Shown: in pieces, positions 78 to 13,732 of the stretch
Position numbering within the stretch: position 1 is the stretch's first letter
Layout: each line of letters begins with the position of its first letter
Assembly (NCBI RefSeq): GCF_003334335.1
Contig: NZ_QOWQ01000056.1
From: Escherichia coli
Lineage (GTDB): Bacteria > Pseudomonadota > Gammaproteobacteria > Enterobacterales > Enterobacteriaceae
Direction: 5' to 3' (one strand)
Length of the DNA: 18,875 bases
Made by a program: the position numbers and the translations under genes
Notes under the pieces: model-generated
What the model saw: only the letters and a program-made list of their open reading frames with translations
What the model was told of the DNA's origin: nothing
Database searches by the model: none

Positions 78-423
78 CTTGCGAACATTGTTCATCAACT
101 GTGACACTGGCTCGCGGGTGACAAATACTCGCCTGGCTGAGCAGCAACAGGCATCGTATTGTTGCTCCTCCATGTTGTTCCCGCAACCAGCGTAATACCA
201 CAGGCAGTGCTGGACTGGCAGTGTGATTGCTCTCAGTAATACGTTCGTGCACCTGTCGGAAAAAGGAAGTACAGAATGCATGAATCTGTTGCCCGTTGAT
301 ATTTCCTTCTGCCGAATGGAGTGTGAAGTAAAATGCCAGCAAATGCGGCCAGTGGTCCACCGCCTGCTGAACAAAACGCCGGATGTCTCCCGGCTCTGAA
401 ATTAAGGCTTCGGTTATTTGCAC
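64..423 (-). CDS. Hypothetical ORF, possibly a gene remnant in the GC-richer left flank; no family recognised
   Basis: 119-aa ORF in the track; the first codon is GTG (plus-strand cac at 421-423) and there is no in-frame ATG near the start. Stop TAG lies inside the left inverted repeat (64-66). A second overlapping minus-strand frame (54-374) is also open, so coding status is uncertain. Confidence 0.2.
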   Translation of the reverse strand: MQITEALISEPGDIRRFVQQAVDHWPHLLAFYFTLHSAEGNINGQQIHAFCTSFFRQVHERITESNHTASPALPVVLRWLREQHGGATIRCLLLLSQASICHPRASVTVDEQCSQGACT

Positions 424-430
424 GAAATGT
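398..430. repeat. Left copy of an imperfect direct repeat bracketing the microcin island (candidate att-like boundary)
   Basis: Core cttcggttatttgcacgaaatgt (408-430) matches cttcggttatttgctcggaatgt (14083-14105) at 21/23; with 10 flanking bases about 27/33. Same orientation. It sits at the switch from GC-richer flank to the AT-rich microcin block. Confidence 0.45.
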
Positions 431-758
431 TCCTTTTCAAACCCTGTTGGATTTTGTCAAGACGGTACAGACACAGTAAAGCGCGCATCAACACCTGAAA
501 GGTACGATACAAACACAAGTTACAAACAATAAGAACGGAAGGACAATTAATCAGTGAGGAATAATAACTAAATTAACCAAAAGAATGTTACTGACAATAC
601 CACCAATACTTAAATAGCAATATATTAATTAATGTAAGAACAGATGCCCGGTAAGACATATACACAATACATCCACAAACACACTCTTTTCATTAAATAA
701 ATCACCTGATTAAACCATGAAAGTGTGATGTAAGTCAAAATTACTGACACAATCAATT

Positions 759-783
759 GATAATGATTATCTCTATCATTATC
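759..783. promoter_or_regulatory. Fur-box-like operator (iron-responsive) upstream of the 869-2125 operon
   Basis: gataatgattatctctatcattatc: the first 13 nt match the Fur consensus GATAATGATAATC with one mismatch and the last 9 nt (ATCATTATC) match the consensus 3' half exactly. It lies about 85 bp upstream of the ATG at 869. Confidence 0.45.
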
Positions 784-868
784 GTGAAATTCGAGAATGA
801 AAGGAGAAGTAGTCATTATAAGCCTTTTATAAATCGTCATCATCATAGTAAAGTAGAACACTTTTTAT

Positions 869-1339
869 ATGAGTTACTATATGAAAATATACTGGACAAG
901 AAAAAACATTCCTGAACTTTCAGCACTTCCACCTTCATTAAGAAAGAAAAATTTTACTGACGCATATAATGCTGCATCTTCCCATATCGAATACTGGATA
1001 GGTGCTGGCGTCTCATTTATCTCGATGATGATTTTATTCAAAGTATATGACTTTCTTTTACCCGCCCAAGATACTTTCCCGGGTGATATCATAAGAAGTT
1101 TATGTGTTGTGTGTCCATCCATATTAATCTGGTTTCAGTTTTCGGTATATGTCATGAGGAAATATTACAGACATATTCTGGAACGAGGTAAGGAAACCGA
1201 AACCATTTCAGAAAGGTTGATACGTGAGGCTGATACACGAGAATATGAACTATGGCGTCCGGCCCATCGCTTTTTCTCCATTATTTTTCTCATTATTCTA
1301 TTAGTTTGCATTCATTCACTGATAACAACTATAAAATAA
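869..1339 (+). CDS. Putative polytopic membrane protein (156 aa), function unknown; possible microcin immunity or accessory protein
   Basis: ATG start at 869 (second ATG at 881); hydrophobic segments (WIGAGVSFISMMILF, LCVVCPSILIWFQFSVYV, FFSIIFLIILLVCIHSLI); very AT-rich like neighbouring microcin genes; co-directional and 100 bp upstream of the CPBP gene. No obvious Shine-Dalgarno. Confidence 0.45.
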   Translation: MSYYMKIYWTRKNIPELSALPPSLRKKNFTDAYNAASSHIEYWIGAGVSFISMMILFKVYDFLLPAQDTFPGDIIRSLCVVCPSILIWFQFSVYVMRKYYRHILERGKETETISERLIREADTREYELWRPAHRFFSIIFLIILLVCIHSLITTIK

Positions 1340-1438
1340 AAGTTATGGCTGTTCTGATACAGGAAAATAAACGTTCATTCTATGGTTACCTCTTCCTGTT
1401 ATATAAAAGAATTTTAAACAACAAGTAAGGGAATATAA

Positions 1439-2125
1439 ATGGAAATAACAAAAAATAAAAATGCAACTATAAAAAAACAGTCATCAGCCGGCTGCTTTTC
1501 AATGTTTACTTTATCATTTTCCATTACCTTTATTCCTGCATTTCTTACAAACAGGCAGGAACTTATATCCAGGGGGCTTCTTGTTCCAGCATTATTTCTT
1601 GCTGAATTTCTAATTCTTGTTCCACTGTATTTTATTTTCTTCCGAAAAAGAGAAGGATTAGGAAGAGGTTCTTTTCGACTGGATGTTTTTTTTACTCTTT
1701 TCTCTTTAATAATGATTATTCAGTTATTTGTCCCTTATCTGCTGGCAGTGAGGAAAACGGAAGAATGGATGATCTCGCAAATGTCTTTTTCCGGGGCCAT
1801 TTTATGGATTAATATATTTTCTTCCGTACTTCTTGTTCCTGTATATGAAGAGATTGTATTTCGAGGGTGTCTTTTTAACTCTTTTAAATTCTGGTTTAAT
1901 GACAATATTTACATCTCTGCTATTGTAACATCAGTCATATTTTCTGCATTACATCTACAATATACTGACTTTCGTACATTTTTGATGCTCTTTCTGATAT
2001 CGTTAGTTCTTATCAGTGCAAAAATAAAGTCGAATGGCCTGTTAATGCCCATATTACTTCACATGGCGATGAATGCAGTCATAACAGGAATACAATATAC
2101 GTTACAATATCACATAACAGTCTGA
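1439..2125 (+). CDS. CPBP-family (CAAX protease / bacteriocin-processing, Abi PF02517-type) intramembrane metalloprotease, McmM/MceF-like
   Basis: 228 aa; ATG at 1439 preceded by taaggga (1426-1432). Family motifs in order: EExxxR (VYEEIVFRG), FxxxH (FSALH), HxxxN (HMAMN), within a multi-helix hydrophobic protein. Homologues (mceF, mcmM) are known in siderophore-microcin clusters. Confidence 0.8.
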   Translation: MEITKNKNATIKKQSSAGCFSMFTLSFSITFIPAFLTNRQELISRGLLVPALFLAEFLILVPLYFIFFRKREGLGRGSFRLDVFFTLFSLIMIIQLFVPYLLAVRKTEEWMISQMSFSGAILWINIFSSVLLVPVYEEIVFRGCLFNSFKFWFNDNIYISAIVTSVIFSALHLQYTDFRTFLMLFLISLVLISAKIKSNGLLMPILLHMAMNAVITGIQYTLQYHITV

Positions 2126-2377
2126 AATTGTTATTATGAGATATCTATAACACCTGAAGTTGGAAAAAGAAGCAAATAATTCCTTATAAGGAATCGTTTA
2201 CTAATATATTTAGATAATCTCATATTTGTTTATGATATACATCTGATTAAGATATAATGGATTATAAATTACTCAAAGGTGAACAAATATCTTCGCCTTT
2301 TCTCGTAGAAAGAGACTTGAAACTTATAATACATCTATATAAACGTGATTTAAATCACGGTTTGCAGTAAAAGCAAT

Positions 2378-2386
2378 TGGTATAAT
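2378..2386 (+). promoter_or_regulatory. Candidate extended -10 promoter element (TGgTATAAT) for the immunity-like/microcin-like pair
   Basis: tggtataat at 2378-2386 fits the TGnTATAAT extended -10 pattern; the nearest -35-like hexamer (ttgcag, 2362-2367) has a short 13-nt spacer. Sequence-only prediction. Confidence 0.25.
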
Positions 2387-2570
2387 TCATTGGTATTACT
2401 ATTATTTCATCTATTGCACGAACTATTTTACAACAATAAAAAAGATATACAAACAGCAAGAAGTAAAAATATTCGGATAAATAAAAATTTTTGCTACCTT
2501 GGTTTCTATAGTCTTTATTTCTAAGTTTTTCATAAGCACTCAAAGACTCATGTATAGGGACGGTTTAATA

Positions 2571-2735
2571 ATGAAACTATTTTTTTATTTCTCGTTGTTC
2601 TTTATAATACAACTTATAAATTCAGACTTAGACACATTAACCCTTTATCTTTTCATAAAGAAAATAATTCTTTCGTTACTTGCGAGTGTACTGTTTTTAT
2701 TTGTTTTATCTTTCTTTAATAAAAAGAGGAAATAA
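2571..2735 (+). CDS. Candidate microcin immunity protein (small two-helix hydrophobic peptide, about 54 aa)
   Basis: The track ORF 2499-2735 starts at TTG; in-frame ATGs occur at 2550 and 2571, and the 2571 one has aggga 11 nt upstream. Product MKLFFYFSLFFIIQLI...IILSLLASVLFLFVLSFF NKKRK has two hydrophobic helices and a basic tail. Stop TAA (2733-2735) is 1 nt before the microcin-like ATG, and the precursor's RBS lies inside its last codons. Confidence 0.4.
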   Translation: MKLFFYFSLFFIIQLINSDLDTLTLYLFIKKIILSLLASVLFLFVLSFFNKKRK

Positions 2736-2736
2736 C

Positions 2737-3060
2737 ATGAGAAATATAACAACCGATGAACTTGCTTTAATACATGGTGCAGGATTAGATAAAGATGCAT
2801 CCGTTGCAATAGGTACTGCGGCTGGTGGTTTTTTAGGTAAAGCAACAAAAATCCCTGGTGCGGATATAGCAGGAAGTGCAATTGGAGGATATATTGGAGG
2901 AGTTATTGCTGATGGTTCAAATAGGACAATAACAATACCATCAAACGGTATTAACTATAATCCGGGTATAGGACTTGGAAGTTTTAATCCAAACTACAAT
3001 GGAGGTTTATTAAACTCAGGATTTAACTCATCAACATCCTCTTCTAGTAGTGGAAGTTGA
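2737..3060 (+). CDS. Class IIb (siderophore-type) microcin-like precursor, 107 aa: 15-aa double-glycine-type leader plus 92-aa Gly/Ser-rich core
   Basis: ATG at 2737 with strong SD aagagga (2724-2730). Leader MRNITTDELALIHGA|G parallels MchB MREITESQLRYISGA|G and the MRxI(S/T)xxEL pattern. Core is cysteine-free, 20/92 Gly, and ends NSSTSSSSSGS like the Ser-rich tails of H47 and E492 that receive the salmochelin-type moiety. The track's 126-aa version starts at TTG (2680) with no RBS and overlaps the upstream ORF. Confidence 0.7.
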   Translation: MRNITTDELALIHGAGLDKDASVAIGTAAGGFLGKATKIPGADIAGSAIGGYIGGVIADGSNRTITIPSNGINYNPGIGLGSFNPNYNGGLLNSGFNSSTSSSSSGS

Positions 3061-3069
3061 TTAATTTCT

Positions 3070-3105
3070 AAAGCAGCATAGCTTATTATGCAGCAATGCT
3101 GCTTT
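3070..3105. terminator. Candidate bidirectional rho-independent terminator between the convergent microcin-like gene and mchF
   Basis: aaagcagcat (3070-3079) pairs with atgctgcttt (3096-3105); an alternative tighter hairpin gcagc-aat-gctgc is followed by tttt. Located between the stop at 3060 (+) and the stop at 3121 (-). Confidence 0.45.
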
Positions 3106-3120
3106 TAGTGATATATTATC

Positions 3121-5223
3121 CTAATTTGTAATTCTAAAAATCCGATCAACTGTTCTTAAAGTTGTCTCTCTATGTGCAATAATCACCCGGGTGATATTCA
3201 TCTTTTTTATAGCAGCATTCACGAAACGTTCACTTTCTGTATCAAGAGAACTTGTAGCCTCATCCATAAATAATATTCCAGGTTTCCGGTATAAAGCTCG
3301 GGCAATGAATATACGCTGTTTTTGACCGCCGGAAAGACCTTCCCCCAGTTCACCTATTAACGTTTCATACCCCATTGGCATTTTCATTATCACATCATGA
3401 ATATGACTTGCTCTGGCACATTCTGTCATCCATTCGTCGTCTGTTTCTTCTGCAAACCCACAGATATTTTCACGAATTGATCCTGAAAATAGCCGGTCGT
3501 CCTGCATAACACAGGCTATCATACGGTGATAATTATTTATTCCAAGTTGACGTATATCCGTGCCATTAACCAGTACTTTTCCACTATCTGGTTCAAACAG
3601 TCCACATAATACTTTCATTAATGTGGTTTTTCCGGCACCGGAGGCACCAGTTATAGCCACACTTTCTCCCGGAGCCACAGACAAATTCAGACCACTGAAT
3701 ACCTGTGCTGACTGGCTGTCATACCGGTAGCTTAAATCAGTGGTTTCCAGTGAAACCGGGCTCATGTCAGCAACGATTTCAATTTCCGGTTTCTTTTCTT
3801 CCTTTTCATGTAGTGCAATATCTGCAATGCGCTCATTATGCAGACTCATTATTCTCAGTTGAAGAAGAAAACTGGTCAGCGAAGCAACCCGATCCGAAAA
3901 CTGCCCACGAAAAGAACCAAATGCCACAAACATCCCTATTGTCATCTGATTATCGATCACAAGGCTTGCACCCAGCCATAAAATCGCCACCTGATCACAG
4001 GCGGCAACAAAAGTATTTATCCCCCCGAAGAGCAAATCCATCCTGGTTAACTTAATACCTGAATTGATCGCATCTATTTTCAGGTTAAGCCAGTGTGTTC
4101 CCCGAATCCCAGCCATACCCTGGATTTTTACCGTGGCAATACCATACAGGCTTTCCATAAAATAGGAGCTGGCCCGGGCCCCCCTGACAAGAGTTTCTTC
4201 CGATATTTGCCGGTAATAGCCGTATGTCACCAGACGAATAAGAACGTAAACCATGGTAAAACCGAGCACTATCCAGGTAAGATATCCTCCATATAACAGC
4301 ATCATCACAAAAACACCCACAACCATAATACTGTCCATGATTGCCCCAACAACACAGGTGGTAAAGGTGGCCCTCAAAGTGTCAAGGGAGCCAAAACGCG
4401 ACTGGATATCACCTAATTTACGGCGTTCAAAAAACGCCAGCGGCAGTCTGAGAAGATGGTTAAACAGACCCGACTGCCACTGTATATTGATGAGCGTGCT
4501 CATAACCAGTGAGGACCATGCACGCAGCATACTCACCGCGGCCCTGAGCAATATAAAGAACATCAGGCCAGCAGAAATAAGCGTCAGCAGCCCTCTGTCC
4601 CCCGCCGGAATCGCATGATCCATAACCAGCTGAGTTCCCACCGGCATTACCAGATTGATTGCTTCAATTACAACTGACAGACAGAAAATTTTCGCCAGTG
4701 TTCTTTTAATACCGTAAATACTGTTAATCAGTGAACGGAGACTTATGCGGGTCTGCTGGGTTTCCGCCAGGAATTCACTTCCGGGCCAGACCTCAAGTGC
4801 AATGCCCGTAAAATACCGGCTCATTTCCTCCCGACCGAGATATCTTCTGCCTCTGGCCGGATCATGCAGTACATAACGGTTACGCTTTACGCTGACCAGC
4901 ACGACGAAGTGACTGAAATCCCAGTGGAGAATACACGGCATTTTGAGGGCACCAAGTTCATCCAGCTCCAGTGAAAGAGCCCGGGTGACCATCCCCAGCT
5001 GCTCCGCTATTCCATTGATTCCTGCAAGGTTTGCTCCACGGGCCGAGAGATTAAACTTCCGGCGAAGAGATATCAGGTCAATATTCTTACCAAAATGACC
5101 GCATATCATTGCCAGGCAGGCCAGTCCACATTCAGCGGTCTCCGTCTGATGAATAACCGGAACACGACGTCGCCAGCGCATATCAAGCTGATTTATAATT
5201 TGTCTGAAATTCCCGTTAGTCAT
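3121..5223 (-). CDS. mchF: Microcin export ABC transporter with N-terminal C39 peptidase domain (CvaB/MchF family)
   Basis: About 700 aa. C39 catalytic Cys context [14 protein letters not shown]; Walker [10 protein letters not shown]; ABC signature LSGGQKQR; Walker [10 protein letters not shown]. The track ORF (to 5241) begins at GTG; the ATG at 5223 ([10 protein letters not shown]) has AGGA 9 nt upstream and overlaps the mchE stop by 8 nt, as in cvaA/cvaB. Confidence 0.93.
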
Positions 5224-6457
5224 TGAGCGGTCCTGTTGCACTGTGTTTCATGTCATAGAAAGGAGAAAGCATCCACTGGTAAATACGCCTTTTTTCCAGA
5301 AATAGTGTACTTTCGGCTTTCATTCCATTTTCCAGAGGGAGGTATTTTTCGTCATATCTGATAATCTGCTTTTCAGGCATCGCAATGACTTTATACCAGG
5401 GAACAGAGTCGCCCGGCGTATTCTGTGGTGCTCCCTTATAGGTCAACATTTCCTGTGTTGACGCAGGAGTCCTGGATATAGTTTTAACCGTAGCAGAGAA
5501 CTGCCCAAATTTTTCTGCCGGAAAGGCTTCATAACGAATATTCACTTTGTCACCAGCCGAAATATAAGGAACAGCATCATTCGGGACCCAGAGAATAAGA
5601 TAATAGTTTTCAATGTTCTCAGGAATAACCTGCAGAAGGCTGTCTCCGGTATTGACCATTTGCCCGACAGTGACACTCAGGGAGTCAACTTTCCCGTCAG
5701 TCAACGCCCGGATAATGATTTCGCCCTCCACATCAGTGTTAACCAGTTCTTTCTGTAACTCATACCGTTGCAGTTCCATCTGGTAGATACGGTTATCAAA
5801 ATCTGCAGCCTGAGTCTGAATCTGACTCTCCAGAGTGGTTATCTGCAGGGCATTCTGTTCGTTCTGTCCGCTCAGGCTGAGAAGATTGTTTTGTTGCTGA
5901 TAATATAATGCCACCTGGTTAGTTAACTGATCTTTATTAATCAGCCCTTTTGCCTGATAGTTTCTGTAATTCTCCATATTGTTTTTCATTATTTTTATCC
6001 CTTCCTCTGCACGCTGTATAATATCTGATGAGCGACGAAACGCATCTGTGTATTGCAGGCGTTGTTTTTCCAGGGTATCTAGCGTTATTTTTTTACTTTC
6101 TTCCAGACGGGAAATAATGTTGTCCACACGAACCAACTGGTTTTCTATATCCCGACGATGATTATCAGTGACAATACCACTACGTGTACTTTTACTGATG
6201 TCAATCAGATAAACAGGATCCCCTTTTTTTATCAACTGTCCTTCATGAACAAACTGCCTGACAACAAATCCCTGTACACCTGAATATATATTGACAGCTC
6301 TTGGCCAGGTTGTGACCTCACCACTGACATTAACACGGCGGCTATAGGTACCAACAATAATGAACATCAGAAATGCCGTAATAAACACTATGCTTCCCAG
6401 CATGATTAACCATAGTGGTATTCCGGGAAGTAATATTGCCCGTCCCTGCCACTTCAT
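5216..6457 (-). CDS. mchE: HlyD-family membrane fusion / secretion protein (CvaA/MchE family)
   Basis: N-terminal TM segment ([28 protein letters not shown]) followed by a long coiled-coil region and C-terminal beta domain typical of HlyD-type partners. The track ORF starts at TTG (6490); the first ATG is at 6457 ([12 protein letters not shown]), giving 413 aa. Confidence 0.92.
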
Positions 6458-6642
6458 TTTTCTGTTTTCTAAAGCATCCTGACGAAACAAAATAGCTCCT
6501 CTTACTCACACTTTTCCTGTAATATCTTCACTGGTTAACCGAAATGCTATAATCAAAGCCAGAAAATACAGAGTCCTGTCAAAATAGTATCAGCGATGCA
6601 TTTACCCCGTAATTTACAATTATCTCTGTATCTTCAGAGGTA

Positions 6643-7095
6643 CTACGTTTTATGCAGCCGCTCAGGGATGTATGTCACAATTTTCTTTCGCCTGCTTAAC
6701 CATCGTACTTCTCCTTCTCCCCATGGCTGAAGCTGTATGAGATAGTCAATAACTTTTCGACCAAAGCCTGGTTTACAACAGAAATCCAGAATCCAAATCC
6801 TTCCATCTTCATTCCATTCAGACGGATGCAACCTGAATTCTGGATCCCTGAGCAGGCGCGCTTCTGTATCAGCCTCAAGATATGCCCAGGTAATATACGC
6901 CAGTGGAAAACCTCGTGAATCAAACAGGAATTTAATCTGATTATGCTGTATCGCATATTCAGTCCAGTATTGAATGGTTAACACCGGATACAGACTGTAA
7001 TTACGATTGTAGAGCATACAACTGACCGCAAAACCGATCTGTTCATAAACAGTCCATTCATCTTTTCCTCTGATGGTTTCCCTTATATAAGACAT
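6643..7095 (-). CDS. mchD: MchD/MceI-like microcin maturation protein (HlyC-like acyltransferase family), 150 aa
   Basis: ATG start at 7095; 150 aa; located between mchC and mchE in the conserved mchBCDEF order. In the E492 system the MceI/MceJ pair links glycosylated enterobactin to the C-terminal Ser of the precursor. Confidence 0.8.
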   Translation of the reverse strand: MSYIRETIRGKDEWTVYEQIGFAVSCMLYNRNYSLYPVLTIQYWTEYAIQHNQIKFLFDSRGFPLAYITWAYLEADTEARLLRDPEFRLHPSEWNEDGRIWILDFCCKPGFGRKVIDYLIQLQPWGEGEVRWLSRRKKIVTYIPERLHKT

Positions 7096-7120
7096 GATTA
7101 CTATTTCCCTTATATATTTT

Positions 7121-8671
7121 TTACACTGTGTTTCTTATCGGTTCAAGATATCCAAATGCATCTCTGGAAAACTTAAGCATAAAATTTTTCATATCAGAAA
7201 TTGCTTCTTGTAAAAAAAGGGGATCATCGCCATGATTATCCAGCAGGATGGCAATTTTTTCGCACATATTCTCTTTCCTCAGCTCTTCCCTGGGTTGCAG
7301 CCTTTTCATGGTATGATGTTCAATTTCTTTCAGGAGTAATGAGGCATTTATCTGACGTCTGGTACTGCCTTGCGTCAGCCAGTGGATGGCCTGGGAAAAA
7401 CACTGTTGTGCAACGGTGAAATAAACATCATTCTTGATGCTACTATTCAGTGCCTGCTTTTGATTATGCCTATGATGGATTAGCGTCACAACCAACTTTT
7501 GCAATGGTGAACCATCCTGATTGACAATATCTTGGGCATGTGATTTCTCGCAGTATTGATTGAGTAATGCAACAAAACTGTTAACCAGTTCTTTCAATAT
7601 ATCAGGTATCTCTTTTTGTGTTATAAATTCTCCAGGAATACCCAACAGTTCTAGATAACAGTAATAACATGCTTCATGAAAAGTTTTCTGAAATATCTCC
7701 TCAACCTTCAAACGGGCTGCAAGAGTGAAGTCAGGGTCAAACATATATTTTCCGATATACAAGCAGAGATCAGACAGCCCTTGCATAAGTACCATCGGTT
7801 CTTTTGCCAGTTCAGCTAATCTTAGTTTATACCCAAAATCAGCTGGGGAATCTCCCGGAAACAGACAACTGAGTCCGCTAAAATCCATTAATCTGCCATC
7901 CATTGCAATATTAGAAGGAGAAGTTGTCAATCTCAGGAAACGTGTTCGACAAAATGCCATTTGCCAGGCCTCACGACGTGCCAGTTCACATAACCCCTCA
8001 ATGCAATAAATCCGGGGATCAGTTCGTGCTTCAGCATCAATTTCTTCCGGTGGTACAGGTAGATATCCTGGCAGCTTGTGGATCACAGATCTAACCCGAC
8101 AGGCATCGTGAATTAACAGACTGGAATACTCCGGTTTTACTTGGAAGTAAGGTGCCCGTTCAAAATGCGCCGGACGAACAACAGGCTCACGTACCAACAG
8201 GGCTCTTCGTGATTTCCTACCGGAGCGCTCAAATGCCTTTTCAGTATAGAGATCTGTAAGTAAAACCGCCCGAACCCGCACAGCACTATAAGGTAATATT
8301 TGAGCCAGTACTTCTCCCCACAAAGCCTCATATATTGCATGAACAGCGCCGAGTGCACCATTAGAATGACGTTCGTCAGTACCTTCGCCAACCAACGGAT
8401 TACTTCCTATTCCTTTAACCTGGTAGTTACCATCAAACCCACAACGTGCACCACCTCCATTACGCTGAATACCACTGCCACCATAGCGCTCTGCATGGAA
8501 CACTTTGGCAGAAGCTGTACTGCCAGGATCGATAATATAACTGCAGGCATTTTGCAGCTCGTCTGGATTTCTGACATCCTCTGCACACCAGATTAATGAG
8601 GCCTTGATCTGCCTGGCAGTGAAAGGCACCAGGTTTTCATTCAGTTCAGAAAGTGAACACTGATGACTCAT
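7121..8671 (-). CDS. mchC: MchC/MceJ-like microcin maturation protein, 516 aa
   Basis: ATG start at 8671 (MSHQCSLSELNENLV...), GGAG about 12 nt upstream; 516 aa; immediately downstream of mchB on the same strand and upstream of mchD. Confidence 0.85.
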   Translation of the reverse strand: MSHQCSLSELNENLVPFTARQIKASLIWCAEDVRNPDELQNACSYIIDPGSTASAKVFHAERYGGSGIQRNGGGARCGFDGNYQVKGIGSNPLVGEGTDERHSNGALGAVHAIYEALWGEVLAQILPYSAVRVRAVLLTDLYTEKAFERSGRKSRRALLVREPVVRPAHFERAPYFQVKPEYSSLLIHDACRVRSVIHKLPGYLPVPPEEIDAEARTDPRIYCIEGLCELARREAWQMAFCRTRFLRLTTSPSNIAMDGRLMDFSGLSCLFPGDSPADFGYKLRLAELAKEPMVLMQGLSDLCLYIGKYMFDPDFTLAARLKVEEIFQKTFHEACYYCYLELLGIPGEFITQKEIPDILKELVNSFVALLNQYCEKSHAQDIVNQDGSPLQKLVVTLIHHRHNQKQALNSSIKNDVYFTVAQQCFSQAIHWLTQGSTRRQINASLLLKEIEHHTMKRLQPREELRKENMCEKIAILLDNHGDDPLFLQEAISDMKNFMLKFSRDAFGYLEPIRNTV

Positions 8672-8695
8672 CTGGCAGTATTCTCCGTTTCAATT

Positions 8696-8721
8696 TTCAT
8701 AAAAGAGTGTTCATAAAAGAG
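8696..8721. repeat. Tandem 12-bp direct repeat (ttcataaaagag x2, 2-nt spacer) in the mchC upstream region
   Basis: ttcataaaagag at 8696-8707 and again at 8710-8721, 25-50 bp upstream of the mchC start codon (8671, minus strand). Candidate operator or UTR element. Confidence 0.3.
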
Positions 8722-8942
8722 CAAGTAAGTGTCCTGACAGCTTCTTCCTTATTACAGTAAAACTCTATTAATTACACATAAATTAAAAAATTATTTATCA
8801 ACGACTGTAAATCATATCTTCATCAGTAAAGTGTTGAACATAAAAACACACTTATAAATGGATCTTCTATCTGTTTTAAACAAAAAGGATATATTTTACA
8901 GGTACTACCGAAAAAGTGCCTGTAAAATAAATAAAAATATAA

Positions 8943-9170
8943 TTAGCTACCGCCACCAGCAGAAGAACTGGCACTACCACTTCCCACGGTCGAGCCAATT
9001 GCTGTTGTCAAACCGGCAGATACGGCTCCAACTACAACCCCAAGTGGACCACCAGGTATTCCGGCGAGAGCTCCAACAATAGCTGCAGCACCTGCAGCAT
9101 TAGCTGAAGTCGCTGGCGCACCTCCCGCCCCGGAAATATATCTTAACTGTGATTCTGTTATTTCTCGCAT
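8943..9170 (-). CDS. mchB: Microcin H47 precursor (75 aa; 15-aa double-glycine-type leader, Gly/Ala-rich core, Ser-rich C-terminal tail)
   Basis: Translation MREITESQLRYISGAGGAPATSANAAGAAAIVGALAGIPGGPLGVVVGAVSAGLTTAIGSTVGSGSASSSAGGGS matches the microcin H47 precursor as I remember it (length, leader, SASSSAGGGS tail). ATG at 9170. Confidence 0.95.
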   Translation of the reverse strand: MREITESQLRYISGAGGAPATSANAAGAAAIVGALAGIPGGPLGVVVGAVSAGLTTAIGSTVGSGSASSSAGGGS

Positions 9171-9197
9171 ATAAACTGCATATAAACTCCATCATAT

Positions 9198-9407
9198 TTA
9201 ACTTCCGTTTTTCCAGTCTGACCAGACCAGAATCCTTCGAATCCCATGAATCAGCTCAATAAAACCAAGAAATATTATAAAGCTTAGAAAAACGTCAACA
9301 TAAGAATTCCCTTCGCCAACAATCCGAAGGGATGAAAGTGAAACCAATAAGATAGTAATAGGTAAACTGAATATAGCCGTCAATTGGGACAGTTTTTTAT
9401 AACTCAT
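9198..9407 (-). CDS. mchI: Microcin H47 immunity protein (69 aa, membrane peptide)
   Basis: 69-aa hydrophobic peptide (two predicted TM helices) directly upstream of and co-directional with mchB; ATG at 9407. Size and position match MchI. Confidence 0.88.
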   Translation of the reverse strand: MSYKKLSQLTAIFSLPITILLVSLSSLRIVGEGNSYVDVFLSFIIFLGFIELIHGIRRILVWSDWKNGS

Positions 9408-9475
9408 TAATCCCTACCTGTTGCTTTATTTTCATTATGAAAAGTTACCAAATCTTAGCACCTCAGTCAGGAGAG

Positions 9476-9595
9476 TCAGGTCATCGATAAAGAATATTCC
9501 AGTAGAGTGGCGCTCATGATCAAAGATAACAGCAAAGTTGATGACAGTGCTGACCGACTGTCATTTACAGAAACCCTGTTTGTAGCAAATTCCAT
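9476..9595 (-). CDS. mchX: Small 39-aa ORF upstream of mchI (MchX-like regulatory peptide)
   Basis: Not in the track (below 60 aa); found by hand: ATG at 9595 to TGA at 9476-9478, translation MEFATNRVSVNDSRSALSSTLLLSLIMSATLLEYSLSMT (39 aa). Position and length match mchX of the H47 system; I cannot confirm the sequence from memory. Confidence 0.55.
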   Translation of the reverse strand: MEFATNRVSVNDSRSALSSTLLLSLIMSATLLEYSLSMT

Positions 9596-9626
9596 CTTAC
9601 CTGACCTCACCCAGACAAAGACAAAA

Positions 9627-9645
9627 GAGAATGATTGTTATTTAC
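9627..9645. promoter_or_regulatory. Weak Fur-box-like site in the mchX / mchS4 divergent promoter region
   Basis: gagaatgattgttatttac matches the 19-bp Fur consensus at 13/19; it sits about 30-50 bp upstream of the mchX start on the minus strand. Confidence 0.3.
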
Positions 9646-9818
9646 TTTTCAAAAAAAGTGTCATATTGTCCATATAAAGTCAAGAGGTATTTTACGTTAT
9701 GTCACTGATGCAATTGTTAGTCAGGATCTCATGGTTGTCGCTCATGTATAACCTGAGACTTGAACGCACACTAATAGCGCTGACGGTCATACATCGGGAA
9801 ATGTGAGGAGGCATAAGA

Positions 9819-10064
9819 ATGAATTGTGATAATAATCACAGAAATGAAGAATTCATTGTTACCTTTGATAAAGGCAACAAGCAAGACAATTCAAGACGAA
9901 AACACGATAATTTTCCTATAGAGGTAGAATCCTCCGTAGAGCAGGAGACACACTGTATCACAAATAATAAGTCAGCTTCCGGTATAGTAACACATGGCTA
10001 TGATGCCGATTATATTTGTGGTTGTGGTGAAATTATGTGTCCTGGTTGCGGTCATGACCTATAA
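9819..10064 (+). CDS. mchS4: Small 81-aa protein with C-terminal Cys cluster (CxC-x4-CxxC), MchS4-like by position
   Basis: ATG at 9819 with SD gaggagg (9805-9811). C-terminus YICGCGEIMCPGCGHDL. Position between mchX and mchS3 matches the H47 island gene order as I recall it. Confidence 0.55.
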   Translation: MNCDNNHRNEEFIVTFDKGNKQDNSRRKHDNFPIEVESSVEQETHCITNNKSASGIVTHGYDADYICGCGEIMCPGCGHDL

Positions 10065-10084
10065 CAAACATTTTTGCAAACTGA

Positions 10085-10098
10085 TACCTGATCAGGTA
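10085..10098. repeat. Perfect 14-bp palindrome tacctgatcaggta just downstream of mchS4
   Basis: tacctgatcaggta is its own reverse complement; lies 21 bp after the mchS4 stop and about 120 bp upstream of mchS3. No loop, so it looks more like a protein-binding site than a terminator. Confidence 0.3.
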
Positions 10099-10219
10099 CA
10101 AGCCTGTTGATTATTATGCTGAATATTTCATGTTATAAAACCATCGATATAAACATTAACAAGAAAAAACATATATTGTTTATCTGAACATTTATCGATG
10201 GAAAACCAAAGGGGAAAGT

Positions 10220-10654
10220 ATGTATCTTACGAAAAAGATTATAATAAGTATGATGTTTATATTACCATCTGCTGCATTTTCATCAGATCCACCTCCCCTT
10301 CAACAATCGTTAGAAAAAACAACCTATTTTTCTATAGGTATGAATGGGTTTATAGGCTATCAGAGCGAAGGGGAAAAATTATACACACACATTCTTACAT
10401 TAGATAATCCCGAAGAGATATTTAAAAATATAATAGAAAATAGAAAGTCAACTAAGGAGTCTAAAATTTATGCTGCTTGTGGGCTATATTATTTAAACGT
10501 AGAAAATATAGAGTCATTGTTTAATGAAAATGATAAACAAGAATATATGTCTGTCTTAAGAGGGGATATTTTAACAAAAATAAAACTGAATGATATTCTG
10601 AATTCTGTGATAATAAATGGTTGCAACACCAAATTAATATCTGAACATAAATGA
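10220..10654 (+). CDS. mchS3: Putative immunity protein for the downstream microcin (144 aa, N-terminal signal/anchor), MchS3-like
   Basis: ATG at 10220 with SD aaagggga upstream; N-terminal hydrophobic segment KKIIISMMFILPSAAFSS; ends 16 bp before the microcin precursor gene, the classic immunity-then-toxin arrangement. Confidence 0.65.
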   Translation: MYLTKKIIISMMFILPSAAFSSDPPPLQQSLEKTTYFSIGMNGFIGYQSEGEKLYTHILTLDNPEEIFKNIIENRKSTKESKIYAACGLYYLNVENIESLFNENDKQEYMSVLRGDILTKIKLNDILNSVIINGCNTKLISEHK

Positions 10655-10670
10655 GCAGGAGGTTTTTAAA

Positions 10671-10907
10671 ATGAGAGAAATATCAGATCACATGCTTGAT
10701 TTCGTGAAAGGAGGGATGAATCTTAATGGATTACCTAGTTCTACTAATGTAATAGATCTACGAGGAAAAGATATGGGAACATATATTGATGCTAATGGAA
10801 CATGCTGGGCTCCGGGTACTCCATCCATCATCATGTATCCGGGGGGAAGTGGACCTTCTTATAGTATGAGTAGTTCCACATCCAGCGTAAACAGCGGCAC
10901 ATCATAA
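10671..10907 (+). CDS. mchS2: Second siderophore-microcin-type precursor (78 aa; leader MREISDHMLDFVKGG, Ser-rich tail), microcin I47-like
   Basis: ATG at 10671 with SD aggagg (10657-10662). 15-aa leader ending GG, 63-aa core with one Cys, C-terminal SMSSSTSSVNSGTS. Position next to mchS3 and mchS1 matches the H47 island. Confidence 0.8.
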   Translation: MREISDHMLDFVKGGMNLNGLPSSTNVIDLRGKDMGTYIDANGTCWAPGTPSIIMYPGGSGPSYSMSSSTSSVNSGTS

Positions 10908-10940
10908 ATACCCTCCGGCATGGCCGGAGGGTATTTATGA
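10902..10940 (+). terminator. Rho-independent terminator-like hairpin at the end of mchS2
   Basis: 18-nt arms tcataaataccctccggc / gccggagggtatttatga around a 3-nt loop (atg), with a GC-rich core ccctccggc/gccggaggg; overlaps the mchS2 stop codon. Confidence 0.5.
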
Positions 10941-11191
10941 TGTGCCTGTAAGACTCTACTTCTGTCGTCTCTTAACAAAGGCATATGATCTGTCATTTTG
11001 TACCAGACATCTTAACGAGAGCCTTTTCATATATTACTTACACACGTGAAATCTACAGTATAAAGCAAAAATTTTATTAAACCTGTTTTATATTTATCAT
11101 CAATACAACAGATTTAATTCCGGAAAGTCACTCATCATCCCTTGAATGAACGTCATTTGATGTATTATTCTTACACTTGGATTAATTTAAG

Positions 11192-12466
11192 ATGATACCT
11201 ATGAAAAACTATCTTTTCCAGACTCCCGAAGATATTTGTGTACAGTTAAAAAAAATGACACATCCTGTCACAATAAGAACAACAGATATTGCTAATTTCT
11301 GGCACTATCTTGAGTCAGCAACACTTCCAGTGATCACAAAAAGCACCACTACAGAAAATCGGGAGGTTACATTTCTGTGGCGCTCAGAGAAAGCACTGCA
11401 AGGCGTATATCTTCGCCTGAATCGTGTTACAGATAAAAAAGACGTCAAAAAAGGACTAATGACTCATATCCCTTCGACAGATATCTGGATGCTGACACTG
11501 GTGTTACCAGCTTCATATCGGGGCTCATACTCATTTATAGAAATTCCCACAGATATGACACAAAAAGACATATTTCAACTAGGAAGTCGCTTCTCTCCAT
11601 TACCCGGTAAATCTGATCCATTTAACAAAACAGCAGAAATAAATATACGAGGATTCGGAGAATCAGTCCTTTCTCTTGATATGGCTCCTGAACAAAAGGA
11701 ATGGGATGATACTTCCCATAAATGTACAGGTATTCTTTCAACATTACATTCCTTTGTTGCAGGATATCAACGCCGGATTCGTTTATATTTCCCCCTGAAT
11801 CCAACATCAGTACCTCTTGGATTACTTGTGTTACCTGATGCTGAAACATGGTTTGACCGGATAGATATTACCCGGGCATTAGATATGGCCATCACCACTG
11901 GTCGTATCACGCCAATGGCAATTATGGGGATAGACAATATTAATGAATCTGATCGTATGAATATACTGGGAGGCAATAAAGAACTCATCTTTGATATAGC
12001 GGAAAATCTGATACCCCAGTTATACAGAGACTATCCGGATATCGTATGGGCTGGTCGCTCTAATACTGTACTGGCCGGGCAGAGCCTCGGTGGAGTGACA
12101 GCACTGATGGCAGCTATATATGCGTCGACAACATTTGGTACAATCATTAGTCACTCACCTTCAATGTGGTGGAACCCTGACCAGGGCAGCCCGATCTTGT
12201 TTACTGAGAATAATACCTCCTGGGTAAGTGAGCAGATACTTTCAGCGCCTCCGAAAGATGTAAATATCCGACTTGGAGTCGGTTCTTTAGAAGGTACAAC
12301 CGTCTCACATGTTCAGCGATTGCATCATTCGTTAATCGCAGCTGGTTTGGAAAGTAACCTCACTGTCTATACCGGTGGTCACGATTATGCTTGGTGGCGC
12401 GGAGCAATTATTGATGAATTAGCAAATTATAATTGCAGGAAGGTATCAAATAATAACTCTGTGTAA
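11192..12466 (+). CDS. mchS1: IroD-like enterobactin/salmochelin esterase (alpha/beta hydrolase), 424 aa
   Basis: Serine-hydrolase nucleophile motif GQSLGG (AGQSLGGVTALMAA); size close to IroD/Fes-type esterases; convergent with and adjacent to the IroB-like glycosyltransferase. Alternative ATG at 11201. Confidence 0.8.
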   Translation: MIPMKNYLFQTPEDICVQLKKMTHPVTIRTTDIANFWHYLESATLPVITKSTTTENREVTFLWRSEKALQGVYLRLNRVTDKKDVKKGLMTHIPSTDIWMLTLVLPASYRGSYSFIEIPTDMTQKDIFQLGSRFSPLPGKSDPFNKTAEINIRGFGESVLSLDMAPEQKEWDDTSHKCTGILSTLHSFVAGYQRRIRLYFPLNPTSVPLGLLVLPDAETWFDRIDITRALDMAITTGRITPMAIMGIDNINESDRMNILGGNKELIFDIAENLIPQLYRDYPDIVWAGRSNTVLAGQSLGGVTALMAAIYASTTFGTIISHSPSMWWNPDQGSPILFTENNTSWVSEQILSAPPKDVNIRLGVGSLEGTTVSHVQRLHHSLIAAGLESNLTVYTGGHDYAWWRGAIIDELANYNCRKVSNNNSV

Positions 12467-12607: not shown

Positions 12608-13732
12608 CTACAATTGTTTCCCGTTGTTTTTTAATTTTCTCATCAAAACCTCTGCGATCTCTGCAGGAGTGGGTTGTTCAGCCATTTCAGCGGCTACCTG
12701 ATCTGAACAGAAGCGTAGTGAATCATCATAAAGCAGGCGATTTACCAAATCACTGGTCAGTCCATGCTTGTCCGGAATAATCCCACACCCACGCTTCGCA
12801 ACAATTTCTGCATTAACAGAGCGATCTGCACCTTCTCCAAACACAATCTGTGGTATTCCACTATACAGCGCTGTCAGGGTATTACCTGCGCCACCGTGAT
12901 GAATAAATCCATCAGCTCCATTAAGGAATACACCCATAGGTATCCAGTCAACCAGACGTACATTTGATGGTAGTTTTCGTAATCCAGTACGAGCATTTAT
13001 TGCAAGTTGCAAAATGATATCAGCATCAACTTCATTTGCTGAATCCATAACCCATGAAATCAGCTCCAGACCATCAACCATTGGTTTTACAGTGCCAAGG
13101 CTGATGAGTAAACGTTTCCGATCAGAATCCCTGTCCCACCATGTTTCCTTTACAGCACCTCCGTTATAAGGAATATATCGCATTGAGATAATCGGTTCTT
13201 CAGCATTTTTAAGAATGCTCATACTTGGGGGAGCAACATCAATCCATGCTAAATCACATAGTGGACCGCTGACTCCATGCCGCCTGTAAGCATTGCTTAA
13301 AGAACGGTTTAACATCTGAATATGGGCAGATGTATGCGCGAATCCAACAGCCAGCATCACTGAAGGAATTCTATATTTAGCAGCAACCAATGGGCCTGCC
13401 GGACCAAGCGGGGGATAGACTATTAAATCTGGCCTCCATTTTCCTGCAAAATCGATGAGGTTATCTGCCATTTCATCGCTAAAAAAAGAGAAATGACCAA
13501 TAATATTACTTTTTTTCCTCAACTCTTCCTGATGGCGATATCCAGCCTCTGAATCTAAACTTGGAGCTGCATCAAAAACAACCAGTCCAGCTTCTGCTGC
13601 TTTATTCGCGAATTTGCCAGCGCTACTAATTACTACATCATGTCCGATTACACGAAAGGCCTGAGCCAGAGAAATCAATGGGTATAACAAACCGTACAGC
13701 GGAGGGCCAATAAAAAGAATACGTTTTCGCAT
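12608..13732 (-). CDS. mchA: IroB-like C-glycosyltransferase (GT1/MGT family) for enterobactin glucosylation, 374 aa
   Basis: ATG at 13732 (MRKRILFIGPPLYGLLYPLISLA, the IroB-like N-terminus); UDP-sugar-binding signature region FIHHGGAGNTLTAL; length close to IroB. Confidence 0.88.
   Translation of the reverse strand: MRKRILFIGPPLYGLLYPLISLAQAFRVIGHDVVISSAGKFANKAAEAGLVVFDAAPSLDSEAGYRHQEELRKKSNIIGHFSFFSDEMADNLIDFAGKWRPDLIVYPPLGPAGPLVAAKYRIPSVMLAVGFAHTSAHIQMLNRSLSNAYRRHGVSGPLCDLAWIDVAPPSMSILKNAEEPIISMRYIPYNGGAVKETWWDRDSDRKRLLISLGTVKPMVDGLELISWVMDSANEVDADIILQLAINARTGLRKLPSNVRLVDWIPMGVFLNGADGFIHHGGAGNTLTALYSGIPQIVFGEGADRSVNAEIVAKRGCGIIPDKHGLTSDLVNRLLYDDSLRFCSDQVAAEMAEQPTPAEIAEVLMRKLKNNGKQL

Follow-up and report, generated by a model that had tools for sequence, protein, structure and literature searches.

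Microcin Ec W is a class IIb (siderophore) microcin of Escherichia coli named by Bhattarai, Bucci and Mortzfeld in 2025 (PMC12999681), who called its precursor Ec WA and its immunity protein Ec WI. In strain NCTC10444 the precursor has 107 amino acids (aa), and its gene (locus NCTC10444_03266, 3367929-3368252) lies between mchF and mcmM and runs in the reverse direction; the gene for Ec WI (3367763-3367927, NZ_LR134092) lies directly 5' of it, separated by a single nucleotide (nt). The authors described Ec WA as free of Cys, with a 15-aa signal peptide that terminates in GA and a Ser-rich C-terminus whose last residue is Ser. Cloned as a pair in the authors' E. coli class IIb expression system and assayed under iron limitation, Ec W inhibited E. 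coli, Klebsiella pneumoniae, K. aerogenes, Salmonella Typhimurium and Shigella flexneri, and likewise several Brenneria and Gibbsiella strains (plant-associated Enterobacterales); cells expressing Ec WA grew only with Ec WI co-expressed (PMC12999681). Its closest characterized relative, according to the same authors, is Gq W of Gibbsiella quercinecans, in the MccW clade (PMC12999681; Mortzfeld et al. 2024, PMC11634061), which likewise belongs to class IIb and has its immunity gene upstream. The present analysis concerns a pair of small genes in an 18,875-nucleotide stretch of an E. coli genome (RefSeq assembly GCF_003334335.1, contig NZ_QOWQ01000056.1), hereafter called the window. Positions 2571-3060 very probably constitute the ecwI-ecwA operon of this same class IIb microcin, situated in a microcin H47/I47 island and in the slot which in other islands holds microcin M.

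Direct translation of both genes gave 107 identical residues out of 107 between the product of the window and WP_001390454.1 of E. coli NCTC10444 (3367929-3368252). In NCTC10444 and in strain UPEC_U013 the corresponding gene carries this accession, and over 721 bp the DNA of UPEC_U013 is 100% identical to that of the window. We equate this protein with Ec WA because its coordinates, locus tag and length agree with the published ones, and not by way of a printed sequence. The window and NCTC10444 loci also share the 54-aa immunity open reading frame (ORF), the 1-nt gap, a microcin gene which is convergent with mchF and lies between mchF and the CPBP/mcmM gene, and an island of the same type carrying H47, I47, mchA and mchS1. 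They differ in the immunity peptide, in which 2 of the 54 residues are exchanged (I16V, F28L).

The ecwA/ecwI pair is therefore already known: peptide, immunity gene and antibacterial spectrum were all published in 2025. The initial annotation, made from the letters of the window, had seen in the precursor no match to those of microcins E492, H47, I47 or M, while allowing that it might already be annotated; its novelty is refuted since the 107-aa product is identical to the published Ec WA; a near-identical match to a characterized pair, which that annotation had itself named as decisive against it, is what we found. Its proposal of an immunity gene followed by a toxin gene has been borne out, the published Ec WI being required for growth of an Ec WA producer (PMC12999681). 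It had also placed the pair downstream of mchF, which holds for the position on the map and fails for the sense of transcription, since the pair is on the opposite strand and convergent with mchF.

The peptide had already surfaced earlier. The cinful study of 2022 (PMC9746304) contains it in a supplementary table as a putative microcin, in a 114-aa form that reads through a TGA codon, with microcin V as its best BLAST match (26.9% over 104 aa, E = 2.4e-5). A full-text literature search by peptide string, tail string and accession returned no paper, the peptide string being found only in this supplementary table.

The ecwA gene and its product

The ecwA gene occupies positions 2737-3060 of the + strand and is assigned from its sequence, its 100% identity to WP_001390454.1/NCTC10444_03266 and the published functional data (PMC12999681). 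Its ATG (2737) is preceded at a distance of 6 nt by the Shine-Dalgarno sequence AAGAGGA (2724-2730), which lies within the 3' end of ecwI, an arrangement which we read as translational coupling of the two genes. The leader MRNITTDELALIHGA comprises the first 15 aa (codons 2737-2781), with predicted cleavage after G14-A15, and is followed by a Gly. The resulting core (2782-3057) has 92 aa and a calculated mass of 8,766 Da; it begins GLDKDASVAIG, includes 20 Gly and 14 Ser, lacks Cys, and ends ...GFNSSTSSSSSGS, its tail NSSTSSSSSGS (3025-3057) being followed by the stop codon (3058-3060). Start codon, Shine-Dalgarno sequence, leader, Cys-free Gly-rich core and tail had all been described correctly in the initial annotation and can be read directly from the DNA.

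These properties can be set against the sequence criteria given for class IIb microcins by Mortzfeld et al. 2024 (PMC11634061). The criteria call for a C-terminus that is rich in Ser and closes with one, as Ec WA does with Ser107; for fewer than two Cys, and there is none in the 107 aa; for a leader within the first 15 aa which ends in GG or GA, and residues 14-15 are G-A; and for an ORF with predicted transmembrane segments within 200 bp, and a 54-aa ORF conserved at related loci lies 1 nt upstream. The genetic context is also that of the class, with mchA/mceC, mchS1/mceD, mchC/mchD (the equivalents of mceJ/mceI) and mchF/mchE represented; all six genes (mchA, mchS1, mchC, mchD, mchE and mchF) are intact in the window.

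The steps of the class IIb pathway are known from the microcin E492 and microcin H47 systems (MccE492 and MccH47). If Ec W follows this established route, MchA would glucosylate enterobactin and MchS1 would linearize the product. MchC and MchD would then join the glucosylated linear enterobactin derivative through an ester link to Ser107, the last residue of the tail, and MchF, together with MchE and TolC, would cleave the 15-aa leader after G14-A15 and export the 92-aa peptide. Import into the target cell would presumably proceed through catecholate receptors and TonB. The earlier suggestion of a siderophore microcin served by the resident mch machinery thus stands insofar as the identical Ec WA is antibacterial in a class IIb system and the machinery is intact; the attachment of a siderophore to the C-terminus is something that we infer by analogy.

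Scans of the ecwA and ecwI products against NCBIfam found no family, a Pfam scan gave only sub-threshold matches to microcin V (MccV) and glycine-zipper profiles, and a tblastn search of the PLSDB plasmids gave no match. Two database forms were rejected as natural variants of Ec WA: P0001 (258 member sequences), in which the TGA stop is read as Trp (...SGSWLISKAA), and P0006, which shows systematic A-to-V, T-to-I, S-to-L/F and P-to-L replacements of the kind expected for C-to-T converted DNA. A third, P0004, present in 13 E. coli contigs at NCBI, is Ec WA with GGYI missing from the Gly-rich region, possibly a deletion allele that occurs in nature.

The immunity gene ecwI

The gene directly upstream, ecwI (2571-2735, + strand), specifies the 54-aa peptide MKLFFYFSLFFIIQLINSDLDTLTLYLFIKKIILSLLASVLFLFVLSFFNKKRK, which has the length and position of the published Ec WI and for which homologous small ORFs exist at related loci. 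Its stop codon TAA (2733-2735) leaves one base (2736) before the ecwA ATG, and a Kyte-Doolittle scan revealed two strongly hydrophobic stretches in the product; the small hydrophobic ORF ending 1 nt before the microcin gene had been noted from the start. The frame offers three possible starts, TTG 2499 (78 aa), ATG 2550 (61 aa) and ATG 2571 (54 aa). We rejected the 78-aa form, because homologues align from approximately the MKLFF start and because it is for the 54-aa form that protection has been demonstrated. Compared with Ec WI of NCTC10444 the peptide is identical at 52 of 54 residues, the window having I16 and F28 versus V16 and L28, and both substitutions are conservative.

Homologous small ORFs lie directly 5' of the microcin gene in two of the related loci (L003 and L005). 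At diverged loci the Ec WI homologues retain 35-50% identity, with 19 invariant columns in the alignment, and the figure for Ec WA is 66% in the MAFFT alignment and 73-74% in the best BLASTP local alignment. Since both ORFs are intact, and conserved at the protein level in diverged loci, the pair is evidently more than a chance occurrence.

CPBP/Abi proteins act as bacteriocin immunity proteins in Gram-positive bacteria. A gene for a CPBP-family intramembrane protease (1439-2125, + strand) occupies the mcmM position 446 nt upstream of ecwI and on the same strand, and a CPBP (Rce1-like) gene is also found near the Salmonella W-type locus. One might therefore ask if this membrane protein, rather than the 54-aa ORF, is the true immunity factor. 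We hold this to be highly improbable. The CPBP gene is outside the W cassette described below and shows 97% DNA identity with that of the MccM-type cluster, so that it is not W-specific and does not co-vary with the toxin, whereas the small ORF does co-vary with it across loci; furthermore, experiment has shown the 54-aa Ec WI to rescue the growth of cells that express Ec WA (PMC12999681). As a W-specific immunity factor the CPBP protein was accordingly rejected, its gene being common to the M-type cluster.

The W cassette and the microcin M slot

Microcin M (mcmI/mcmA), encoded by islands of the CA46 and Nissle 1917 type, resembles Ec W in occupying the slot between mchF and CPBP/mcmM, in using the same mch machinery, and in being a class IIb microcin with an adjoining immunity gene. 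The two have no sequence similarity, and mcmI/mcmA are co-directional with mchF, that is, in the opposite orientation to the Ec W genes.

The extent of the exchange can be seen from blastn comparisons. Homology to the MccM-type cluster of NCTC10444 is confined to window positions 78-2098 and 3136-10917. Between these lies what we call the W cassette (2099-3135, delimited against the first NCTC10444 cluster), 1,037 bp which take the place of 742 bp with mcmI/mcmA and bear no similarity to the MccM-type cluster. One junction falls within the final ~27 nt of the CPBP gene and the other within the final ~15 nt of mchF; the GC content of the cassette is 29.7%, versus 43.8% for mchCDEF.

Relatives and the putative toxic core

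Searched with a profile, 1.84 billion representative proteins yielded only 15 clusters at E <= 0.001. The nearest relatives that we compared by sequence are P0007, from a Salmonella plasmid, and P0019, from Pantoea multigeneris (L007 9795-10312). The former is 66% identical to Ec WA in the alignment, has the tail ...GPGGGS and is found beside mchC/D/E/F-like genes; the latter is 35% identical, belongs to a full mch-like cluster, and ends in ...SNGQ rather than in Ser.

Several observations weigh against the identification of the pair as a working siderophore microcin operon. The published study employed wild-type targets only, without mass spectrometry, receptor or tonB mutants, or a tail-less or machinery-less control (PMC12999681), and the Ec WI allele of the window is two residues off the allele that was tested. 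Most of the family, furthermore, has no Ser-rich tail: P0005, P0011, P0012, P0014, P0015 and P0017 are all tail-less, P0014 being from Serratia, P0015 from Pantoea alhagi/Mixta and others from metagenomic contigs. At the Serratia P0014 locus (L008-L010 8001-8294), which is the one tail-less locus that was read and which adjoins a non-ribosomal peptide synthetase cluster, only HlyD and C39-ABC exporter genes are found alongside, with no mchA, mchC or mchD; a small upstream ORF was called at one of the three loci. The tail-less metagenomic P0005 (L003 5432-5949) has a 64-aa Ec WI homologue directly upstream.

Because the Serratia and Pantoea/Mixta relatives are without a Ser tail, the W core may be toxic and imported without a siderophore, and these relatives suggest that on its own it can make up a plain class IIa-type microcin, with the siderophore tail as an add-on. 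The same facts, and the choice of controls in the published assays, would suit a reading in which Ec W itself is functional and yet siderophore-independent, a class IIa-type (MccV-like) microcin with its own uptake route, whose Ser tail is optional or recent and at most broadens uptake. We regard this as unlikely. The tail STSSSSSGS, with its terminal Ser, fits the C-terminal signature of class IIb, and ecwA lies within a complete mchA/S1/CDEF island. Moreover P0007 and P0019, both of which lie beside mchC/D-like genes, have an extended Ser-, Gly- or Asn-rich C-terminus, although only P0007 ends in Ser.

With microcin V (colicin V, PF17508) Ec W shares a double-glycine leader and, following it, a D-x-A-x-A-I-G-T... 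Gly-rich N-terminal region; unlike microcin V it has neither the Cys pair nor the MccV C-terminal uptake domain, and possesses a Ser-rich siderophore-type tail instead. The PF17508 profile matched Ec W with an i-E-value of 0.057, over aa 1-56 only, and 0 of 9 family members reached E <= 0.001. With the glycine-zipper profiles PF13488 and PF13441 Ec W gave E = 0.076 (aa 24-58, below significance), and one of nine relatives gave E = 1.4e-4. Both likenesses of Ec W are thus below significance and belong with the unfavourable points; the one to MccV would serve as a lead on the toxic module, not as evidence of family membership. The AlphaFold2 prediction, made from a 9-sequence alignment, is likewise an unfavourable point, being of low confidence (pLDDT 53, pTM 0.33); at that level of confidence it places a helix in the leader, helices at 19-36 and 42-61, and disorder in the C-terminal half. 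Residues ~19-61 are similar to microcin V in its N-terminal half and to glycine-zipper segments, a faint indication that this N-terminal Gly-rich region is the toxic part and that it acts on the inner membrane.

Transcription

The remaining unfavourable points concern expression. A scan of the W cassette for Fur boxes found at best a 13/19 match, which 286 of 500 shuffles equalled, and promoter-like sites in the region are no commoner than in shuffles; the published expression of Ec W was from a pBAD plasmid and not from the native island (PMC12999681). It is conceivable on these grounds that ecwI and ecwA are conserved but natively silent, forming a promoterless cargo cassette of no ecological effect in carrier strains, the more so as the 472-bp region upstream contains no Fur box and no promoter signal above chance, and as heterologous pBAD expression is the only kind reported. 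We consider such silence very unlikely. In 117 complete genomes, from strains of many hosts, the DNA keeps an identity of at least 99% and neither ORF is disrupted; the strong ecwA Shine-Dalgarno sequence and the coupled ORFs also speak for an expressed operon, as do a defined terminator 3' of ecwA and a Fur-box promoter upstream on the same strand, between which and ecwI no + strand terminator is evident.

This promoter-like sequence, TTGATA-17-TATCGT (757-785, + strand), overlaps a Fur box at 759-777 and stands upstream of four same-strand genes: orf156, the CPBP gene, ecwI and ecwA. The first of these (869-1339) codes for a 156-aa hydrophobic protein without a family match, for which RefSeq uses a later start (152 aa, WP_001554638.1, "hypothetical"). 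The Fur box agrees with the consensus GATAATGATAATCATTATC at 17 of 19 positions, a score which 0 of 300 window shuffles reached, and points to an iron-regulated operon of orf156 and the CPBP gene adjoining the microcin cargo slot. Given that the W cassette itself is without a Fur box, iron control of ecwIA may be exerted by read-through from this candidate promoter. Besides the 17/19 site, the region 753-785 contains overlapping 14-16/19 matches.

Between the convergent stop codons of ecwA and mchF lies a hairpin (3068-3108), followed by TTTT on the + strand and including a terminator-like site at 3090-3102. Its folding energy is -19.3 kcal/mol (z = -2.8), and 2 of 200 shuffles fold as well. 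It is likely to be the terminator for ecwA, and possibly acts in both directions.

A possible modular origin of Ec W

The above results allow a wider proposal, which we advance as possible and hold only tentatively, that Ec W is a natural chimera. An MccV-like glycine-zipper core, of a family that is mostly class IIa and tail-less, would have acquired a class IIb Ser tail in E. coli/Salmonella; the 1-kb immunity-toxin cassette would change places with the microcin M cassette by recombination in the 3' ends of mchF and the CPBP gene, and would possibly be expressed by read-through from the Fur-controlled promoter upstream of the CPBP operon. Were this true, Ec W would be a natural case of the modular design of toxin domain and uptake domain for which the evidence to date comes mainly from engineered hybrids. 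Relatives without the tail and a cassette with sharp boundaries together offer a natural system in which to study recombination of toxin modules and the siderophore uptake tail.

Distribution and annotation

By megablast the region 2400-3120 of the window is present at >=99% identity in 117 of 5,426 complete E. coli genomes, all copies being chromosomal. As mchF is found at >=95% identity in about 363 records, carriers of the W module make up roughly a third of these. The authors of Ec W counted 29 carrier genomes (PMC12999681). The carriers include many isolates from birds and from humans, as well as an O104:H4 strain. The ecwI allele is >=99% identical to that of the window in 73 of the 117; the remaining 44 have other alleles at 95-99%, including the NCTC10444 type. 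In E. coli O104:H4 FDAARGOS_349 (NZ_CP027394.1 5120025-5120189) ecwI is 98.8% identical to that of the window, which is the identity level of the NCTC10444 allele.

At the W copies of these 117 genomes RefSeq lists ecwA as "hypothetical protein" and does not annotate ecwI. Public annotation thus lags, and for this reason annotation-based surveys of microcins would miss Ec W, a fourth siderophore microcin of E. coli.

Other genes of the island

On the strength of the annotation of UPEC_U013, whose neighbourhood is 99.6% identical to window positions 78-11716, and of family scans, the window is a microcin H47/I47 island. Beyond the convergent end of the W cassette, and on the - strand, come the export genes mchF (3121-5241), specifying a C39-peptidase ABC exporter of 700 aa from the RefSeq start, and mchE (5216-6490), whose product is an HlyD-family adaptor by annotation and family scan. 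These are followed, also on the - strand, by the siderophore-attachment pair. The mchD product (6643-7095) is of the HlyC-like acyltransferase family (toxin-activating lysine-acyltransferase in RefSeq, with PF02794 found on the Salmonella homologue); mchC (7121-8671) codes for 516 aa and is identified by annotation, RefSeq giving "MchC protein" for a paralogous copy. The microcin H47 precursor gene mchB (8943-9170) and the H47 immunity gene mchI (9198-9407), both on the - strand, are likewise assigned from annotation.

The I47 part of the island is on the + strand. Between mchI and mchS3 there is an 81-aa ORF (9819-10064) with a Cys-rich C-terminus (...CGCGEIMCPGCGHDL), a RefSeq hypothetical (WP_001554633.1) with no NCBIfam match. 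An mchS3-family protein, the I47 immunity protein, is encoded at 10220-10654 (NF041432, 137 bits versus a cut-off of 100). The ORF at 10671-10907, coding for 78 aa and ending ...SSSTSSVNSGTS, is presumably an I47-type microcin precursor, an assignment made from its position after mchS3 and from the I47 sequence. As canonical microcin I47 ends in ...SSANSGS, the precursor here would be a variant of it that differs in the attachment tail. In RefSeq the ORF is a "hypothetical protein" in the first NCTC10444 cluster and goes unannotated in the second, as it does in UPEC_U013.

The siderophore-processing genes complete the island. The mchS1 (mcmK) gene (11192-12466, + strand) specifies an enterochelin-esterase homologue [NF007758, E = 7.5e-57] and mchA (mcmL; 12608-13732, - strand) a glycosyltransferase, identified by annotation and family scan. 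In the W carrier UPEC_U013 (L001 24793-27403) mchS1 is interrupted by an IS3-family element. W carriers thus vary in the intactness of their siderophore-processing machinery, which in the window is intact.

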